Shown: piece by piece, positions 52,802 to 63,979 of the stretch
How positions within the stretch are numbered: the first letter of the stretch is position 1
How the letters are laid out: each line of letters starts with the position of its first letter
DNA from: Candidatus Marinacidobacterales bacterium
Lineage (GTDB): Bacteria > Acidobacteriota > Vicinamibacteria > Marinacidobacterales > DATDRI01
DNA length: 64,000 bases
Assembly: GCA_965226495.1 (NCBI GenBank)
Contig: OZ245365.1
Coordinates: forward strand, 5,408,001-5,472,000
Reading direction: 5' to 3'
Position numbers and translations under genes: made by a program
Notes under the pieces: generated by a model
What the model was told of the DNA's origin: nothing
Database searches by the model: none
Seen by the model: the letters and a program-made list of their open reading frames with translations, nothing else

Positions 52802-54235
52802 ATGAAGACACCACAAGCCTCGAGCGCTGAAGCCCTACCGCCCCTGCACTTCTACGGCGGTCTTCCTGGCACTCTTGCGCCGTTCTTTCTTTACTTGGTG
52901 GGTGTCGCGTGGCTCGCCTTTTCGGGAGCGCCCGACGAGCGCGGGTTCTGGCCCATCATCCTCGCCGCCATTACACTCGGTCTCCTTCTCGCCACCGACC
53001 GTACGACGTATTGCGAGGTCTTGATCAAGGGGATGAGCCAGCCCATCACCTCGATCATGATCATGGCTTGGTTGTTGGCGGGAGTGCTGGGCTCCTTAAT
53101 GAACGCCTCTGGGTTCGTCGAAGCCCTGGTCTGGTTGGCACGCCAAGTCGGTCTGTCGGGGGGCGGGTTTGTCGGCGCGGCTTTCATCATCAGTGCCATT
53201 GTTTCGACATCAACGGGGACCAGCTTCGGAACGATTTTTCTTTGTGGCCCTCTGCTCTATCCCGCCGGGGGTGCGCTGGGCGCAAACCCAGCAGTTCTCG
53301 TCGGGGCGATCATTGGGGGCGCGACCTTCGGCGACAACGTCTCCCCGATCTCCGATACCACCATCGCGTCTGCTCTAAGCCAACTCGCCGATATCGGGGG
53401 CGTGGTGAGGAGTCGACTCAAATACGCATTGCCGGCGGCTGGGGTCGCTTTGCTTCTATACATAGCCTTTGGCACCGCAGACGGTGCCTCCACTCCAAGC
53501 GAGGCCGGACTCTCGGAGGGAAATCCCGGCGGCTTCCCCATGTTGATCGTGCCGGTGTTGGTGATCACCCTCTTACTCAAGAAACGTCACCTCATTGAAG
53601 GGCTTCTGTTCGGAATATTGGGGGGCTCGCTCATCGGCCTCGCTTTCGGTCTTCTGAAGCCTTCCCAATTTCTGTACATCGACGCGGAGAATTTCATTGC
53701 CCGTGGAATCATTCTGGATGGCCTCGAGCGCGGACTCGGCATCTCGGTACTCACCCTTTTATTGATGGGCTTGGTGACTTCTCTTCAAGCAACAGGTGTC
53801 TTGAATCGCATCGTCGAGTTCGCGCAGAAACGAAGCAAGACACCGCGCGGGGCGGAATGGTGGATTTTCGGCGCCGTGTCGTCGGCGGTATTGCTGACGA
53901 TGCATAGCGTGGTTGCCATTCTGACAGTGGGTGAGTTCTCCCGCAAGACAGGAGGGCGTTTCGGAATCTCTTCCTATCGCCGGGCCAACATTCTCGATGT
54001 CACCACTTCCTCTTTTCCCTTCATCCTCCCGTGGTTCATTCCCACCATTCTGGCGGCCGGTACGACGGTCTCCGGTGAGGGGTTTGGAATGCCGCGCGTC
54101 TCGCCCCTCGACACCGGCCTCAACAACTTCCATTCCTGGATGCTGCTGGTCATGATCGTGCTCGCCATTTGGAGTGGTTACGGCAGGACGTTCGTTCCCG
54201 ACAAGGTCAACGGAAGCAGCGAAGAAACAAACTAG
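52802..54235 (+). CDS. NhaC-family transporter
   Basis: STGTSFGT, GATFGDNVSPISDTTIAS, multiple TM segments. Confidence 0.88.
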   Translation: MKTPQASSAEALPPLHFYGGLPGTLAPFFLYLVGVAWLAFSGAPDERGFWPIILAAITLGLLLATDRTTYCEVLIKGMSQPITSIMIMAWLLAGVLGSLMNASGFVEALVWLARQVGLSGGGFVGAAFIISAIVSTSTGTSFGTIFLCGPLLYPAGGALGANPAVLVGAIIGGATFGDNVSPISDTTIASALSQLADIGGVVRSRLKYALPAAGVALLLYIAFGTADGASTPSEAGLSEGNPGGFPMLIVPVLVITLLLKKRHLIEGLLFGILGGSLIGLAFGLLKPSQFLYIDAENFIARGIILDGLERGLGISVLTLLLMGLVTSLQATGVLNRIVEFAQKRSKTPRGAEWWIFGAVSSAVLLTMHSVVAILTVGEFSRKTGGRFGISSYRRANILDVTTSSFPFILPWFIPTILAAGTTVSGEGFGMPRVSPLDTGLNNFHSWMLLVMIVLAIWSGYGRTFVPDKVNGSSEETN

Positions 54236-55749
54236 CTGCGCTCACCACCGGTCGTTTCATCCCAATAGCGGGCCAGGTCGGCGAGCGGTACTGGCTTGGT
54301 CGGCGGCCTGGCGGTAAACGAACCGATATCAGAAAAGTCATTTCCGCTTTGGGCCGCGATCAACGCCGCGACGCTGAGTGCGCAAAACCGACCCTGGCAT
54401 GGCCCCATGCCGGCGCGCGTAAAGAGCTTGACGGCGTTGGCGGTACCGAGGTGCGGATTTTCGCGAAGCGCTTGCCTGACTTGCCCGCACGAAATCTCTT
54501 CACAGCGACAGAGGACCGTTTTGTCCGACATCAGTCCTGCCAGGGCATCGAATCGTGGGGCGGCGAACTCTTGGAGGGCTCGTGCAAAGCGCCGCTCCCG
54601 GCGGAGCTTCCTTCGAATCGGGGCCGCCAGTTGGCTAGCCCGCCCCGCACCGACCCTCCCGAGGTCTCTCAGGAGACCGATCGCGGCCAGGCGCCCTTCC
54701 GAGATAGCGACGTCGGCTCCCGCTACTCCGGTGATTTCACCTGCGAGATAAATGTACGGCTCAGTCGATCGCATCCACTCGTCGTGCTCTAGAACCCACC
54801 CCCCCTCACGCGGACTCCACCGCGGACGGCAGCCGGCTTGTCGACCGAGCTCGGTGGAGGCTACAAAGCCGTAATTCAGACCGATGGTGTCACACGGGAT
54901 GGTCTCCTCGGTCCCGGGTATCACGTCCCAGGCATCGTCGACCGAAGCAACGACCGCACGCTCGACTTCGCCGTGCCCTTCCGCGCCGATGATGATCTTT
55001 CCGAACGAGACCGGAACTCCTGCTCGATCGAGGCGTCTCCACGCCGCCAGCGATTGCGCGAGTTTCTCCCAACTCGTCCAAACGTTCGGGAGCTGCTTTA
55101 TCGCATCAAAGAACGACGGCCTCGACTGGGCGAAGAAGACGCCACCGATCTCCGCTCCCTCATTGAGCAGCTGGTCGGCGATCAAGATCTGAAGGGGGTG
55201 CGCTCCCACGAAGCAGAACCGATTGCCCGGCAAGAAGCGCTGGCTTTTGACGAAGGCTTGTATCCCACCTGCCGCCATCACCCCGGGCAATGTCCATTCA
55301 GGGAATGCCACTGGCAGATCGAAGGCCCCCGGAGCGAGCAGCACCCGCCTCGCACGGAGAAGGTCCACGCCTCGCTCCCCAGATAGGGCAACTGCCATTG
55401 CCGCCGCGGACTCGCCGGCGGCGGCGGGGGTCAGCGTCATCGCTCCTGGCGATCGAACTCCAGAGACGCCCTCGACTCCGAGGGGGAACAGTCCCCACAC
55501 GGTGGTTTCGAGTCGATAACGGAGCTTCTTCTCGGAGGCGGCTCGCAAGATTTCCTTGCCAAGGGCCTGGGTCTTGCCGACGCCGCGGTCGTTAACGTCA
55601 AAGGTCTTCGGGGGCTGACGGTAGATCTGTCCCCCGGGTCTGGCCTGTTCGTCGAGCAACACCGCATCGACTCCGTGCTCGGCGAGGATCAACGCGGCGG
55701 CCAACCCCCCCGGTCCGGCCCCTACGATCGCAACGTCAGCGCGCTCCAC
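54232..55749 (-). CDS. FAD/NAD(P) oxidoreductase with C-terminal BFD-like 2Fe-2S domain (HcnB/OoxA/LhpF-like)
   Basis: GAGPGG, GGQIYRQ, WTLPGVM, CRCEEI, TRAGMGPCQGRFC, RPP.KPV. Confidence 0.9.
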   Translation of the reverse strand: MERADVAIVGAGPGGLAAALILAEHGVDAVLLDEQARPGGQIYRQPPKTFDVNDRGVGKTQALGKEILRAASEKKLRYRLETTVWGLFPLGVEGVSGVRSPGAMTLTPAAAGESAAAMAVALSGERGVDLLRARRVLLAPGAFDLPVAFPEWTLPGVMAAGGIQAFVKSQRFLPGNRFCFVGAHPLQILIADQLLNEGAEIGGVFFAQSRPSFFDAIKQLPNVWTSWEKLAQSLAAWRRLDRAGVPVSFGKIIIGAEGHGEVERAVVASVDDAWDVIPGTEETIPCDTIGLNYGFVASTELGRQAGCRPRWSPREGGWVLEHDEWMRSTEPYIYLAGEITGVAGADVAISEGRLAAIGLLRDLGRVGAGRASQLAAPIRRKLRRERRFARALQEFAAPRFDALAGLMSDKTVLCRCEEISCGQVRQALRENPHLGTANAVKLFTRAGMGPCQGRFCALSVAALIAAQSGNDFSDIGSFTARPPTKPVPLADLARYWDETTGGERS

Positions 55750-56035
55750 GTACTCCTCCGGCCCCTCCGGTCACGACCTTCATTCCTGGCCGAACCACCA
55801 TCATGCAAGATCGCAAAGCCGCCACACCGTCCACGGTCACGACGCAATCGAAACAGACTCCCATGTTGCAAAAGGGACCCCGCGGTGAGCCTCCTTCAGT
55901 GCGCCGGAGAGTGCGCCTACCGGAGGCGAGGATCGCGGTTGCCAAGGACTCGCCGGGATACGCCTCGACGTGTTCACCGTCGATCTCGATGACGATCGGC
56001 GGTGGTCGCTCCGTGTCTCTCTCGAGGCGCCGCAT
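55736..56035 (-). CDS. 2Fe-2S subunit (HcnA/LhpE-like)
   Basis: GESLATAI, PRGPFCNMGVCFDC.V.VDG...RSC...V.PGM. Confidence 0.9.
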   Translation of the reverse strand: MRRLERDTERPPPIVIEIDGEHVEAYPGESLATAILASGRRTLRRTEGGSPRGPFCNMGVCFDCVVTVDGVAALRSCMMVVRPGMKVVTGGAGGVRGAR

Positions 56036-56037
56036 GA

Positions 56038-57231
56038 CTACACAGGGTTCAAGTGATCGAGGCGATGGGGACTGTAAATATCCATGGGCAACGAAGACCG
56101 TCCCTTCAGAATCTGTTCGCTCAACAACCGTGCGTACGTAAGTCCAATGGTGAAGCCGGAGCCGCCGACGGCCACGAAGAGTCCGGGACGGCGACGGATC
56201 TCCCCCAAGACGGGGACCTGATCGGGGGTCACCCCGACGATCCCGGACCACGTGCGTAGGAGCCGCAGATCGCGTATGGCTGGTACTACCCGAGATGCCA
56301 GCGAGGCACTCCCCGACAAGGAACCAAACAAGAGCTCCGGAGAAGCGTCGATGTCCGCGTAATGCGCTCGACGACGAAGCCAGGCAGGCCATCCTCCACC
56401 GATGAGCACGTTCCCATCTCGCATCTGCTTCATTGAGAGACGGCGTCCCACGTGTTGTACGAGGTGAGAGACGGTTGGTGAGACGGCTTCAGTCGCCATC
56501 ATACTAAGCGCGACTGGAATTACCGGAAGATTCACGTTCGCCAACGCGGCCACGCGGCCGGTCCACGCGCCGGCCATCACGAGAACGGTCTCCGTCTCGA
56601 GATCGAGACCGGACTCGGTTCGCACCTTCCACTTGCCGCCGCGGCGAGCAAGGCGGTTTACCGTTTGGTTGGTAATCACCTCGGCCCCCAGCCGCTTAGC
56701 CGCCCGGGCGAGTGCGGGTGCAATGAGCCGCGGGTTGGCGTGGCCCTCTTCGGAAAAATATCCGGCCGCCTGGATCGTTTTGGAAAGATAGGGTGCCATC
56801 TTTCGCGCCTCGTCTCCGGTGAGGAGCTCGGTTTCTAGATCCCACTTACTCTCGAGCGCTTTCTTCTTCTCCAACAATTCGACTTCTTCGCGAGTCTCGG
56901 CGACGATGAAACCGCCTTCTTGTATAATTTCGAGATCTTCATCGAGCTCAGACTCCAGCCTGCGCCACCTGTCGACAGCGTCGTGCACCAGCGGGATGGA
57001 AAGAGCAAACTGCTCCGCCAGCGCGTCGCCGTGCTCGACCATCCGGTGCTCGAGTTGGAAGTGAAGGCTGCCCGCATTCTGACCCGAAGCCTGGCGATTG
57101 AGCTGTTCTTTCTCTAGAAGAACCACCCGAGCGCCCCCTTGAGCCAGGTAGTAGGAAGCGGCGCAACCCAACAGGCCTCCGCCTATTACAACGACATCGG
57201 TGCGCGAGCTAACGGATTTTTGAAGATTCAA
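56038..57231 (-). CDS. DadA-family FAD-dependent oxidoreductase (HcnC/OoxB/LhpB-like)
   Basis: VIGGGLLG, ASGQNAG, AGAWT, RTWSG...TPD..PVLG. Confidence 0.9.
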   Translation of the reverse strand: MNLQKSVSSRTDVVVIGGGLLGCAASYYLAQGGARVVLLEKEQLNRQASGQNAGSLHFQLEHRMVEHGDALAEQFALSIPLVHDAVDRWRRLESELDEDLEIIQEGGFIVAETREEVELLEKKKALESKWDLETELLTGDEARKMAPYLSKTIQAAGYFSEEGHANPRLIAPALARAAKRLGAEVITNQTVNRLARRGGKWKVRTESGLDLETETVLVMAGAWTGRVAALANVNLPVIPVALSMMATEAVSPTVSHLVQHVGRRLSMKQMRDGNVLIGGGWPAWLRRRAHYADIDASPELLFGSLSGSASLASRVVPAIRDLRLLRTWSGIVGVTPDQVPVLGEIRRRPGLFVAVGGSGFTIGLTYARLLSEQILKGRSSLPMDIYSPHRLDHLNPV

Positions 57232-57283: not shown

Positions 57284-57850
57284 ATGCCCCGACGCCCGAA
57301 GCGCCTGACCGTAATGAGCGGATATTGCGCCGTGGCACCCGACCATCCGTTTCATGGGCCGTACCACGACCGGGAGTACGGCTTTCCCATTCGCAAGGAC
57401 AATCTACTTCTCGAGCGCCTAGTGCTCGAAATCAATCAGGCCGGGCTATCTTGGTTGACCATCCTAAAGAAGAGAGACAACTTCCGGGTCGCTTTCGACG
57501 AATTCGAAGTCGACCGGGTGGCGGGATACCGAAACCGGGAGCGGTCTCGCCTCCTAAAAGACGCGGGCATTATTCGCAATCGCCTGAAAGTGAACGCGGT
57601 CATCGAAAACGCGCGGCGACTCGTCGCCATCCGTGAGAGCCACGGCGGCTTCGCCAAGTGGCTGGACGCGCATCACCCCCTCAGCAAGGCCGAGTGGGTG
57701 AAGTTGTTCAAGCAAACCTTCCTTTTTACTGGCGGCGAGATCACCGGAGAGTTCCTTCTGAGCACCGGCTACTTGAAGGGCGCTCACGTACCCGCTTGCC
57801 CGGTGTACAAACGGGTGGCTCGTTTGAAACCGCCGTGGATGCGCAAATAG
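57284..57850 (+). CDS. tag: DNA-3-methyladenine glycosylase I
   Basis: YHD.EYG, EINQAGLSW.TIL.KR, GIIRNRLK..A...NA, GAH...C. Confidence 0.94.
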   Translation: MPRRPKRLTVMSGYCAVAPDHPFHGPYHDREYGFPIRKDNLLLERLVLEINQAGLSWLTILKKRDNFRVAFDEFEVDRVAGYRNRERSRLLKDAGIIRNRLKVNAVIENARRLVAIRESHGGFAKWLDAHHPLSKAEWVKLFKQTFLFTGGEITGEFLLSTGYLKGAHVPACPVYKRVARLKPPWMRK

Positions 57851-59861: not shown

Positions 59862-59928
59862 GCCTTGGTCTCCATGGTGAACATTGCTTGTTTGGGCGCT
59901 GGCTCCGCGCCAGCGTCAATCTCAGAAG

Positions 59929-59944
59929 TGCAAGCTGGATGCCA
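59929..59944 (-). promoter_or_regulatory. Sigma-54 promoter (copy 2)
   Basis: TGGCATCCAGCTTGCA = GG-N10-GC. Confidence 0.75.
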
Positions 59945-60053
59945 AGGGTAAGTGCCTAAAAAGGCGAGGGTGGGCGGTAGGGGGGCGGGCGGCGCTTACG
60001 ATTTACGTAAGCACGTTACGTTTCTGGAAACTGGAAAGGTGAGGAGTTTGCCG

Positions 60054-60926
60054 TCACTCCGCGCCGTGCCGATGTTTCCCAGTCCGCGACGCAGGGGCGA
60101 GACGCATGTCTTTGTTTTCGATCTCGGCCGGCATCAAGAGCAGGTCGGCGACCTTGGTGATGGCCTCGAAGACCTGCACGATGGTCAAGACCTCGAGGAT
60201 GCCTTCTTCGCCTGCTCCCAGGCGCAGCAGCTCGCGCCGATAAAAATTGATGCCGTAGGGCGAACGGGTCACGACCGATGCCGCGAATCCGATCATGGTT
60301 TTATAGGGCCTCGAGAGAACGCGATCGGGCAGCGTCCCACGGACATAGTCCCAGGTCGCCTTCAGGTGGGTACCGCGACCGACGAGATAGCGGAATGCGT
60401 TGGGAAGTTCTCCTCCGTAGAAATCGGTTATCTGGGTGAGAAGTTTTTGCCGAGCAGCAGGAACCTTCTCCAAGCTGGGTGGCGGATAAAGCGGCGCAAC
60501 GAGTGTCGGTCGTTCTTCATCACCATCCAGGGGAACCCCGATCGCGTCGGCGAAGGCGTTCACGTATTGTGCTGCCGCCATGGCGAAACCTGCTTCCAGC
60601 CAAGCTTCGTCGTTATCCATGCCCGCCCGCCGGGCGGACCACTGATGGATCGATGTTCAGTAGTCGCAGGCGTTCATCGCCGACACGCAAGTGGCGATCA
60701 TTTCCTTGCTAGCGGCATCCAGTTTGCCGGGAGCCCATGCCACCTTGGAAGCATTCGACTCACCGCGCCAGACTTCCGGAATCGTCGAGATCACACGGCC
60801 CATGGTGCTATCGAAGTCGATGCCGAACCGATCGCGGACCAGACGCAGGAAATCCTGGATTTCGGGGCTCTGAGATGCGATATCAGGAAGTTCGATGCTG
60901 GCACTATTCGCGTCTGGTCTGCGCAT
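60054..60926 (-). CDS. AhpD/carboxymuconolactone decarboxylase-family protein, probable selenoprotein (CxxU, UGA at 60657-60659)
   Basis: ORFs 60657-60926 and 60054-60620 are in frame and joined by 12 sense codons, reading KEMIATCVSAMNACDY[UGA]TSIHQWSARRAGM; SECIS-like hairpin immediately downstream. Confidence 0.85.
60615..60650 (-). promoter_or_regulatory. Candidate bacterial SECIS element
   Basis: ATCCAT-CAGTG-GTCCGCCC-GGC-GGGCGGGC-ATGGAT; G-initiated apical loop about 25 nt after the UGA. Confidence 0.7.
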
Positions 60927-60978
60927 ATAACGTTCTCCTTCCGCGTTCCATGATGGGCGTCCGGCGGGCGGTAAGTCG

Positions 60979-61863
60979 CTATCGAGCGCGCCAGGACGCC
61001 GGGCTCGCCACTTTCTTGTAAGCGTAAACCATCACATCTTGAAACCTGCCCGGTTGCATCGGCGTCCGGACATCTCCGCGCACCTGGTATCCGAACCCTC
61101 CACTTTCTAGGAAACCCAGAAAATCCGCCAAGCGGTCCTCCCCCGGATCGAGATGGTGATGATACTCGATGGCCATTTGGCGGATGAAGTTACTCTTTCC
61201 CGACTCGACGAGCTCACCTATGACTTGGGACTCAGCTCCTTCGATGTCGATCTTGAGGAGATCAACGGGCTTGTCAACGTATTCCGAGAGTCGCACCGAA
61301 GGAACCCTTAATGGCTGCGTCGAGTTTCTTTTGGGAACCACGCTCCCCGTTCCTGCGCCTGGCCCCTGTGGGTCGGAGTAGAACTCGACGACGCCTTCCG
61401 TGTTCGAGACTGCCTTGTTTACTAACGTGACGTCTTCAAAACCGTTCGCTTCGACGTTACGCTTCAGCAAGGAGAAGATCTCGGGGTCGGGCTCGAAGGC
61501 GAGGATTTTGCACCCAGGGTAGATTCGCTTGAAGAAGAGGATGGACATACCGAGATTCGCGCCACAGTCCACGATGAAGGGTTGGGCCGTAGTACTCGAA
61601 AAGAGATAGTCTCTCGTCAAGAATACTTCGATGAAGATGTACCGCAAAAGACGATAATCGAAGAACTCAATCTGGGCGCCCAGAATTCGCTTGCGGCGCG
61701 GCCGGCCATCGGCCGCAGGCTTGAGAACAGAGCGGAGCTCGAGACCCAAGTAACAGGCCAACGTCCTGAGCCGGCCATCCGCGGGGTCGTCGCGCAGGAT
61801 TTTTGGACCTAGGCGCAGAATTCTTGATACCGCTCGTTGGGTATCATCGAGCCATTCAGGCAT
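60979..61863 (-). CDS. FkbM-family methyltransferase
   Basis: IVDCGANLG, AFEPDP, LLKIDIEGAE, IEYH. Confidence 0.93.
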   Translation of the reverse strand: MPEWLDDTQRAVSRILRLGPKILRDDPADGRLRTLACYLGLELRSVLKPAADGRPRRKRILGAQIEFFDYRLLRYIFIEVFLTRDYLFSSTTAQPFIVDCGANLGMSILFFKRIYPGCKILAFEPDPEIFSLLKRNVEANGFEDVTLVNKAVSNTEGVVEFYSDPQGPGAGTGSVVPKRNSTQPLRVPSVRLSEYVDKPVDLLKIDIEGAESQVIGELVESGKSNFIRQMAIEYHHHLDPGEDRLADFLGFLESGGFGYQVRGDVRTPMQPGRFQDVMVYAYKKVASPASWRAR

Positions 61864-61949: not shown

Positions 61950-62525
61950 TCAGCCGGTGCGTTTTTCGAATGAGGAGATCTCGGCTTCCTGATCCAGCAG
62001 AAGATCGAGCTCGTCCTTGCCCTGGAGCAAGCAGTGACGCGAGAAAGCATCGATGGGAAATCGGACCTCTTTGCCGCTAGGCAACTTCATGGACTGCGCC
62101 TCTAGATCTATGACGAGCTCCACACCGGGATCGTCCATCAGAGCCCGATGCGTATCCTCGTCCACGACGACCGGTAGGAGTCCGTTCTTGAGTGCATTGT
62201 TGCAGAAGATGTCGGCGAACCGCGTGCTCACGACAGCGCGGAAACCGAAATCGAAGAGCGCCCAGGGGGCGTGCTCACGGGACGAGCCGCATCCGAAGTT
62301 GTCTCCCGCAACTAGAATCTGAGCGCCTCTTGTATTGGCTTGGTTCAGGACGAAATCGGGCTTGGGATTTCCCTGTCCGTCATACCGCCAATCTGCAAAG
62401 AGTTTTTCGCCGAGTCCATCCTTGTTGGTGACGGTCAGGAATCGGGCTGGAATTATTTGGTCGGTATCGACGTTCGTCGCCGGCAGGACGACGGTGCGCG
62501 ATTTGACGACCCGGATCGATTCCAT
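61950..62525 (-). CDS. leuD: 3-isopropylmalate dehydratase small subunit
   Basis: [35 protein letters not shown]. Confidence 0.98.
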
Positions 62526-62527
62526 GG

Positions 62528-63979
62528 TCAGCCCAGGATCTCTCGCGCGTCCGCAATTTGTCCGGTGACCGCGGTGGCGGCTGCGGTAAGCGGACTGGCC
62601 AAAAACGTTCGCGCTCCGGTTCCCTGACGCCCTTCGAAGTTCCGATTGCTGGTGCTCACCACGTATTGACCCGGCTCGACGCGGTCGCCGTTCATGGCGA
62701 TGCACATCGAGCAGCCTGGCTCGCGCCACTCGGCTCCGGCATCTCGGAAGATCCGATCGAGACCTTCCGCTTCGGCCTGCTTTTTTACTTGTCGAGAGCC
62801 GGCGACGACCAGAGCACGCACACCCGACGCCACTTTCCGGCCTTGGAACACGCTCGCCGCAAGACGCAGATCGGAGATTCGAGCGTTGGTGCAGCTGCCG
62901 ATAAAAACAACTTCCACCGGATGGCCGAGCAGCACTTGTCCCGGCTTGAGACCCATGTAGCGAAGGGCTTTATCCGTCGCAGGATCAGAACCCGGTTCGG
63001 GCAGCGGTGAGCGCAGCGGTAACGCCATCCCGGGATTGGTTCCGTACGTAATCATCGGCTGCAATTGCGCAACATCGATGCCAACTTCACGATCGAAGCG
63101 GGCGGCCTTGTCACTTGGTAGCTGTCGCCAGCGCGCCACCGCTTCGTCCCATGCGGCCTCCTTGGGAGCAAGCGGACGACCCGCGAGATATTCGAACGTC
63201 GTCTCGTCGGGCGCCATCATGCCCGCCCGCGCTCCACCTTCGATGGACATGTTGCAAACCGTCATCCGCTCTTCCATCGAAAGGGTGCGCACACAGGAGC
63301 CTCTATACTCGAAGACATGACCGGTGCCCCCATGGACCCCAATCTTGGCGATGATAGCCAGTATCAAGTCCTTGGCGGTCACTCCGACCGGGAGAGCTCC
63401 ATCCAGATGGATCGCGAACGTCTTAGGCCTTCGCTGCAGCAGGCACTGACTCGCCAACACATGTCCCACTTCCGTGGTGCCAATGCCGAAAGCCAGAGCC
63501 CCAAATGCTCCGTGCGTGCTCGTGTGGCTATCCCCGCAAACGATCGTCATTCCCGGCTGAGTAAGCCCCTGCTCGGGTCCGATAACGTGCACGATGCCCT
63601 GTTGCTCATGGCCCAGCGGGAAGAGACGGACACCAAACTCCTCACAGTTGTGCTGGAGTTGTCGTACCTGAGCTTCCGTCTGTGGACTGGAAAAGACGAC
63701 CCGGCCGTCCTTTTCGGGAGGAGTCGTCGGCGTCGAGTGATCCATCGTCGCCACGGTCCGCTCCGGGCGGCGAACAGGCAAGCTCCTTCGGCGCAGCGTC
63801 TCGAAAGCTTGAGGGGACGTGACCTCGTGAACTAAATGAAGATCGACGTAGAGAAGCGCAGGGATATCTTCGGTTTCCGAACGAACGAGGTGAGAGTCCC
63901 AGACCTTACCGAAGAGCGTACGGTTGGTGCCGCTCTCTTGTTCCTTCTCCAAGCTCTCCGTGTTAGCGGCTGGCGACAT
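62528..63979 (-). CDS. leuC: 3-isopropylmalate dehydratase large subunit
   Basis: [53 protein letters not shown]. Confidence 0.99.

Follow-up and report, generated by a model that had tools for sequence, protein, structure and literature searches.

A predicted two-domain AhpD/CMD-like selenoprotein gene with an in-frame UGA at codon 90 in Candidatus Marinacidobacterales

The locus and its closest described relatives

AhpD-like and CMD-like proteins that carry selenocysteine (Sec, U) in a CxxU motif have been published since 2005, when, in the part of the Sargasso Sea survey available to us, 27 AhpD-like (COG2128/TIGR01926) and four CMD-domain (PF02627) sequences were counted (PMC1088965). The accessible portion of the 2008 Global Ocean Sampling survey gives 299 sequences for AhpD-like 1 and 70 for AhpD-like 2 (PMC2398784), and the excerpts at hand of reviews from 2022 and 2026 and of BSepDB also include AhpD-like and CMD-like selenoproteins (PMC9312934, PMC13188914). 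Here we describe a gene of this kind in a 64,000-nucleotide stretch of Candidatus Marinacidobacterales DNA (GenBank assembly GCA_965226495.1, contig OZ245365.1, positions 5,408,001 to 5,472,000). This whole stretch is called the window, and coordinates given without a contig name refer to it. Judging from sequence, positions 60054-60926 of the minus strand very probably form one selenoprotein gene in which the UGA at codon 90 is read as Sec. A first-pass annotation made from the window letters had proposed such a gene and had noted that AhpD-like selenoproteins were already known, which the publications above bear out.

The locus shows two open reading frames (ORFs) on the minus strand. The upstream ORF (60657-60926, 89 residues) ends in ...SAMNACDY, followed by TGA at 60657-60659, and 12 sense codons (36 nt, TSIHQWSARRAG) join this UGA in frame to an ORF of 188 residues (60054-60620) that starts MDNDEAW. 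With the TGA read as U, the predicted product has 290 residues and contains C87-D-Y-U90-T-S-I-H94. The complete two-domain coding sequence would thus be 60054-60926, with 290 codons, the predicted Sec at codon 90, and a terminal TGA at 60054-60056. The first-pass annotation had joined the same three pieces into one 290-residue frame, and this layout was confirmed on the minus strand. A Shine-Dalgarno-like AAGGAG, read from the sequence, lies at 60935-60940 (minus strand), 8 nt 5' of the ATG at 60924-60926, and the N-terminus MRRPD is kept in every ortholog that covers the gene start. A scan of the region found no promoter-like sites, and three terminator-like sites against 2.4 expected.

The UGA (60657-60659, minus strand) falls, as first proposed, on the second Cys column of the AhpD/CMD signature N85-x-C87-x-Y89-[C/U]90-x3-H94, and relatives with Cys read N-x-C-x-Y-C-x3-H at the same place. 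The active-site motif C87-D-Y89-U90-T-S-I-H94 occupies 60645-60668 (minus strand) and, with Glu75 (60702-60704), corresponds to the AhpD-type proton relay. The relay pattern Glu-(11 residues)-Cys-x-[His/Tyr]-Cys-x3-His occurs in the window protein, with Sec replacing the second Cys. An alignment of 18 two-domain Sec forms has E75, C87, Y89, U90 and H94 in every sequence. The relay residues given in the available part of a published account are Glu36/Cys48/Tyr50/Cys51/His55 in PA0269 and Glu118/Cys130/His132/Cys133/His137 in Mycobacterium tuberculosis AhpD (PMC3141380). The spacing in the window protein equals that of both proteins, and the offset between the family profile and 1GU9 is consistent with this.

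The CMD model PF02627 matches residues 61-130 across the UGA with 67.7 bits (cut-off 23). This first CMD/AhpD-core domain (60537-60746, minus strand; model positions 13-80 of 84) contains the UGA and is the predicted catalytic domain. The AhpD core model TIGR00778 also scores above its cut-off (43.1 against 27.8 bits). A second CMD repeat, residues 189-263 (60138-60362, minus strand), was recognized by PF02627 at 26.7 bits against the cut-off of 23 when residues 141-290 were scanned alone. At the motif position (60240-60263) the alignments read S222-P-Y-G225-I-N-F-Y229 where repeat 1 has C-x-x-U-x3-H. The second repeat is therefore without redox cysteines (S222-x-x-G225-x3-Y229), in agreement with the first-pass annotation.

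Models at the level of protein families gave a different picture. The window protein stays below the cut-offs of TIGR01926 (38.8 against 81.8 bits), of the true AhpD model TIGR00777 (20.4 against 191.95 bits), and of NF041238, the AhpD_rel_CFYUT (seleno)protein (41 against 175 bits), and it has no match at E<=0.1 to NF041047, the GSU3128-family (seleno)protein. TIGR01926 is matched by all 18 aligned two-domain relatives at E<=0.001, and among five Sec-form relatives and two Cys homologs scored individually only one (L043, 84.2 bits) passes its cut-off. The window protein thus passes only the domain-level models PF02627 and TIGR00778 and fails at the family level, and we therefore regard it as another member of a known selenoprotein class. 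NF041238 and NF041047 are likewise AhpD-related CxxU proteins that NCBI models as selenoproteins, and the window protein is a member of neither.

As far as the accessible descriptions go, the published marine CMD-like and AhpD-like CxxU selenoproteins resemble the window protein in the PF02627 domain, the CxxU motif, a selenocysteine insertion sequence (SECIS) immediately 3' of the UGA and the marine setting. The window protein differs in falling below the TIGR01926 cut-off, in its length of 290 residues, and in having two repeats of which the second lacks cysteines. This comparison uses the descriptions of the published CMD-like entries, which come without domain architecture or sequences, and a two-domain form may be among them. 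The fold family is shared with M. tuberculosis AhpD (1KNC/1GU9) and PA0269 (2O4D), which the family profile matches at E=2.5e-5 (1gu9) and E=1.1e-3 (2o4d). The window protein shares with PA0269 a Tyr at the middle relay position, and it differs from both proteins in carrying Sec for the second Cys. Its active site lies in the first repeat, whereas that of M. tuberculosis AhpD, according to the available part of the source, lies in the C-terminal repeat. The best match among solved structures is 2OUW, a single-domain AhpD-core protein of 138 residues (E=2.8e-18, profile positions 2-129). It aligns over the whole first domain, including N-x-C-x-Y-C-x3-H, but has Cys and no second repeat.

Conservation of the UGA codon and the decoding machinery

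Five orthologous sequences were compared, namely the gene of the window genome (G000), those of its congeners G002 (95%) and G001 (91%), and two metagenome contigs (L117 and L118, 98% each). The TGA and the frame are kept in all five, and the sequences are collinear over all 290 codons. Differences from G000 at codon positions 1/2/3 number 12/5/68, 18/10/75, 5/4/44 and 2/2/27 in the other four, and within the 12 linker codons three different changes are synonymous, one is nonsense and none is missense. Downstream of the TGA, synonymous and nonsynonymous changes stand at 45 and 7 in G002, 20 and 5 in L117, and 15 and 3 in L118. Outside G001, the orthologs contain no frameshifts or further stops.

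This conservation bears on whether the locus holds two real, separate genes, with the UGA as the stop of an 89-residue protein and a 188-residue protein starting at Met103. Gene callers do split it in that way (proteins P0100 and P0002-P0006), codon 103 is an ATG, and the G001 copy has a TAG between the ORFs, yet its downstream ORF is open. However, the CMD model runs over the UGA, so the active-site motif would be severed between Tyr89 and His94 if the locus were split, and the 36-nt spacer is in frame in five of five orthologs with three synonymous and no missense changes. Met103 itself is not conserved (Y, A, L or V in relatives), and no Shine-Dalgarno-like motif is evident before it (GGCGGGCGGGC). 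Among 31 related loci with TGA at this column, the distance from the UGA to the following in-frame start codon ranges from 1 to 32 codons and that to the following ATG from 9 to 126 codons, with no conserved restart. Finally, homologs with Cys are continuous over this point. Taken with these observations, two separate genes are very improbable, and a single gene read through the UGA is the preferred reading.

The wider family was surveyed at the best 80 of 162 related loci, found by a pattern scan with one genome per species. Two search patterns were used, one neutral and one that demanded a Cys codon, so the locus search was not biased towards TGA. In the U90 column, TGA stands in 31 of the 80 loci, all of them two-domain (233-290 residues matched), and 49 have Cys (TGC or TGT), all of them single-domain (86-172 residues matched). 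The TGA loci come from Candidatus Marinacidobacterales and Blastocatellia (Acidobacteriota), Dehalococcoidia, Rokuibacteriota, Nitrospinota and one Rhodospirillales metagenome-assembled genome (MAG). Among 12 aligned full-length two-domain proteins from databases, the column holds Cys in ten, Ser in one and Gly in one, and their second repeat is also without CxxC; a thirteenth such protein (P0081, 309 residues, CxxC in both repeats) was left out of the alignment. The interchange of Cys and UGA that the first-pass annotation had suggested looking for was thus found both between loci and among two-domain database homologs. It had also named homologs always split and lacking Cys as a finding that would speak against its proposal, and continuous, Cys-containing homologs were found instead.

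A TGC or TGT misread as TGA had been raised there as well. Over 59900-61100, the contigs of three DNA runs, each from a different study, do not differ by a single letter, although one or more of the runs could be the source sample itself. Their agreement means that the TGA did not arise as an error in a single assembly.

The 6.34-Mb genome that contains the window holds the complete Sec pathway, for which the first-pass annotation had asked. The genes selA (570.1 bits), selB (377.7 bits, cut-off 242) and selD (332.6 bits) and a tRNA-Sec with anticodon tca (70.9 bits) were all found, with selA, selD and the tRNA also over their curated cut-offs. The selD gene has one in-frame TGA at its canonical ...SAGUASK site. 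This selD (G000:C1:5697778-5698710, locus L011) is itself a selenoprotein gene, with the TGA in ...TSAGUASK... and a hairpin about 33 nt downstream.

An alternative is that the UGA is recoded as a residue other than Sec (Cys, Trp or Gly) through near-cognate suppression or an altered code. The inserted residue cannot be told from sequence alone, and Cys insertion at Sec-UGA codons is known under selenium scarcity. However, among the 53 window frames that run for 250 codons or more from stop to stop, 20 are closed by UGA, so the code is the standard one; the full Sec pathway is present and selD has a Sec codon of its own. Moreover, a UGA at a redox Cys column with a conserved hairpin 3' of it is the signature of SelB-dependent decoding. 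We therefore consider insertion of another residue highly unlikely, and Sec is the residue assumed below.

The hairpin 3' of the UGA and the probably decaying G001 copy

The first-pass annotation had described a SECIS-like hairpin with a loop starting in G about 25 nt from the UGA, and this structure appears in both the centroid and the minimum free energy (MFE) folds. It spans 60615-60650 (minus strand) and has a 6-bp lower stem, AUCCAU/AUGGAU (60645-60650 pairing with 60615-60620), a 5-nt bulge on the 5' side, and a GC-rich upper stem of 8 bp, GUCCGCCC/GGGCGGGC (60632-60639 pairing with 60621-60628), which accounts for -14.3 kcal/mol alone. The GGC loop begins 25 nt past the UGA, and the MFE of the 50 nt downstream is -21.4 kcal/mol. 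All 14 pairs form in all five orthologs (70 of 70 cells), 13 of them invariant and one changed from C-G to U-G. Nowhere in the gene is synonymous constraint stronger than in the hairpin: of the 12 third positions in hairpin codons 93-104 just one varies, against 124 of 290 across the gene (hypergeometric P=0.011). Just six of 279 sliding 12-codon windows are equally invariant, and four of these six start at codons 93-96.

Hairpins at the same place but with different sequences occur in each Sec clade, with loops GGC, CGGGAA/U or GUCA, and the apical loops of the TGA sequences always start 20-25 nt past the UGA. The bSECISearch program reportedly expects the loop 16-37 nt from the UGA, a G in the first two loop positions, and a folding energy of -7.5 kcal/mol or below. 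The window hairpin agrees with these values in its loop distance and its leading G. In a strict test that required a perfect stem, 18 of 35 TGA sequences passed, compared with one of 49 Cys controls. The mean folding z-score was -1.33 for the 35 TGA sequences and -0.13 for the 49 Cys sequences, the sequences being kin. In the sister clade that includes a paralog from the same genome, four of seven pairs show compensatory changes, and none of 500 shuffles reached the covariation score. In the Nitrospinota-type clade, 94.7% of cells are paired. A scan against Rfam yielded nothing relevant, the sole match being fiv_FSE at the chance level of E=9.2.

The paralog just mentioned (G000:C1:5996474-5997220, L034/L036) is a two-domain gene whose product is 33% identical to the window protein and reads NACEYU-VKAH at an in-frame TGA. 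Its own hairpin has the loop CGGGAA 20 nt after the UGA. An ortholog of it occurs in G001, and more distant ones in Rokuibacteriota and Dehalococcoidia.

Several observations weigh against the reading of the UGA as Sec. The window hairpin shows no covariation, with no pair changed on both sides among the five orthologs, because these are too similar. Its folding energy is unremarkable for GC-rich sequence (z -1.24, with 21 of 200 shuffles as good), and the 60 nt downstream of the UGA give a z-score of -0.55. When the UGA and six upstream nt are included, a rival lower helix, GACUACUGA/UCAGUGGUC, competes with the lower stem, leaving the GC-rich apex unchanged. In the Nitrospinota-type clade the covariation is not above that of shuffles, 320 of 500 of which reach it. 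In a loose bSECIS-style test of the MFE folds, 34 of the 35 TGA sequences pass and so do 19 of the 49 Cys controls, and the criteria were applied here by our own script rather than by the original program. Counts over the 35 TGA sequences overstate their independence, since many of them are closely related. As regards expression, one contig from an RNA library (X18, 167 nt) covers 60281-60447 and is possibly derived from DNA. The remaining points concern G001. Its copy (L028, G001:C24:93124-93993) has CAG changed to TAG at codon 95, five codons past the UGA, which makes a full-length product impossible as the sequence is read, and selB was not found in this genome at E<=1e-60 (a 91%-complete, 4.7-Mb MAG). 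G001 does hold selA, a partial selD and tRNA-Sec.

The G001 copy is also the place to consider whether the gene is a pseudogene, a former CxxC gene hit by a nonsense mutation of TGC or TGT to TGA. One base change suffices to turn a Cys codon into TGA, and the G001 copy looks damaged. Past its TAG, nonsynonymous and synonymous changes number 19 and 45, compared with 15 and 80 in the other three orthologs, each relative to G000 (Fisher P=0.048). Upstream of the TAG there is no such excess (5 and 21 compared with 10 and 53, P=0.76). Against a pseudogene, however, five of five orthologs have the same TGA, as do 31 of 31 two-domain relatives that belong to several phyla, change downstream of it is mainly synonymous in G002, L117 and L118, and frameshifts and other stops are absent outside G001. 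The G001 pattern better fits a functional read-through gene that decays after a true stop. A pseudogene origin of the window TGA hence has very little probability, and we return to a functional Sec codon. The copy with the TAG probably became a pseudogene recently, or else reflects variation of the strain or the assembly, and the codon changes suggest that it is a recently broken, decaying gene. If so, this argues that the C-terminal part depends on translation that comes through from the N-terminal part.

Family distribution, gene neighbourhood and implications

A HMMER search with the family profile against 1.84 billion representatives gave 5556 matches at E<=1e-3 and 48 at E<=1e-30. Among 401 sampled genomes of the phylum, only G000 itself matched the profile at E<=1e-25, and the family is therefore rare in this sample. 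For a maximum-likelihood (ML) tree, 34 Sec and 12 Cys two-domain sequences were used; the tree is midpoint-rooted and has long branches, so that it counts changes without giving their direction. Left out of the trees were the G001 copies, P0081, the partial L118 and every single-domain protein. The window clade is set on a long branch and belongs, with support 99/97, to a clade of 14 rows that comprises 13 Sec forms and the Gly form. Two Cys forms are the sister group of a further clade, which has 21 Sec forms (98/96). On the tree, three changes of the Sec label are required, at least two of which are forced by well-supported branches, and a single change was possible in 0% of 200 bootstrap trees.

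The gene would yield a cytoplasmic protein of 290 residues with two CMD/AhpD-type helical repeats. As the ribosome reaches codon 90, SelB carrying Sec-tRNA(Sec) would bind the GC-rich hairpin 3' of the UGA, Sec would be inserted, and translation would proceed through the TSIHQWSARRAG linker into the rest of domain 1 and domain 2. Pairs of SelB and SECIS often function only within their own species. In AhpD, the second Cys position is the attacking one. By homology, Sec90, which replaces the second Cys of the C-x-x-C pair in AhpD, would be the attacking nucleophile, Cys87 would resolve the intermediate to form a selenenylsulfide, and Glu75, Tyr89 and His94 would act as the proton relay, as in AhpD-family proteins. 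Repeat 2 is probably a structural partner that provides the packing surface given by the second subunit in single-domain CMD proteins. The likely role of the protein is that of a thiol-selenol oxidoreductase that reduces peroxides or disulfides.

Taken together, its architecture, spread, SECIS designs, Sec/Cys switching and low visibility raise the possibility, to which we give slightly less than even weight, that the window gene represents a distinct, unmodelled two-repeat AhpD/CMD subfamily. Such a subfamily may combine a repeat 1 of the form C-x-Y-U-x3-H with a catalytically dead repeat 2 as a built-in partner, giving an intramolecular pseudo-dimer. Its Sec forms may extend over at least five phyla, mostly in marine MAGs, and may use three SECIS hairpin designs (loops GGC, CGGGAA/U and GUCA). 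On the ML tree, Sec and Cys may have switched at least twice. The subfamily may also be nearly invisible in protein databases, with gene callers always cutting at the UGA.

The gene neighbourhood gave no clue to the substrate. The window gene is flanked by an FkbM-type methyltransferase gene upstream and a CHRD-domain gene downstream, no peroxiredoxin or ahpC gene was found among ten neighbouring ORFs scanned, and no neighbour genes common across the clades were found. In the Nitrospinota-type clade (L047-L065 and relatives, e.g. L047:1685-6768), the gene stands between an ABC-transporter binding protein gene, of the branched-chain type, and molybdoenzyme genes, a three-gene set of the xanthine-dehydrogenase/CO-dehydrogenase family with FAD, 2Fe-2S and Mo subunits. 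This arrangement is kept in 18 of the 31 TGA loci and is not present at the window gene.

Directly downstream of the paralog described above lies a deiodinase-like PF00837 gene (L036:2331-2990, plus strand) with an in-frame TGA in the classic motif ...FGSYTUPPF.... It is also split at the TGA by gene-calling logic, so that two selenoprotein genes stand side by side; this neighbour was found only within the genus (G000 and G001). Upstream are a pyridine nucleotide-disulfide oxidoreductase gene and a B3/4-domain gene.

Elsewhere in the window, 54232-57231 (minus strand) carries an FAD and 2Fe-2S oxidoreductase cluster (Pyr_redox_2 with SO_alpha_A3/BFD, Fer2_4 and DAO) with similarity to a heteromeric sarcosine/opine-oxidase-type system. 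Positions 57284-57850 hold a methyladenine glycosylase gene, and genes for the large and small subunits of an aconitase-family protein occupy 61950-63979. The intergenic segment 59906-60030, 3' of the selenoprotein gene, has a second copy about 1.3 kb away in a contig of run X4, with three small indels, which suggests a short dispersed or duplicated segment in the strain of that run.

Database records show how such genes are handled at present. The 89-residue half, which P0100 matches letter for letter, and 188-residue halves (P0002-P0006) are stored as separate proteins, just as the first-pass annotation had expected of standard pipelines. A word-index protein search matched only five C-terminal ORFs of 188 residues. 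Among the best 150 representatives of the 5556 profile matches, a hand count found 40 C-terminal fragments whose match begins, at residue 9 or earlier, within profile positions 80-108, right after the Sec column, and six N-terminal fragments that end exactly at profile position 78, right before it. No family-level NCBIfam model rescues the split two-domain forms.

This gene leaves knowledge of Sec decoding itself unchanged, and its main value lies in annotation and selenoproteome accounting. The natural Sec/Cys pair at the second C-x-x-C position of an AhpD-type site could serve as a probe of what selenium adds. Public protein sets represent the gene, its paralog and dozens of relatives each by two truncated proteins, and the use of selenium is therefore under-counted in uncultured marine Acidobacteriota (Candidatus Marinacidobacterales), Nitrospinota and Dehalococcoidia.

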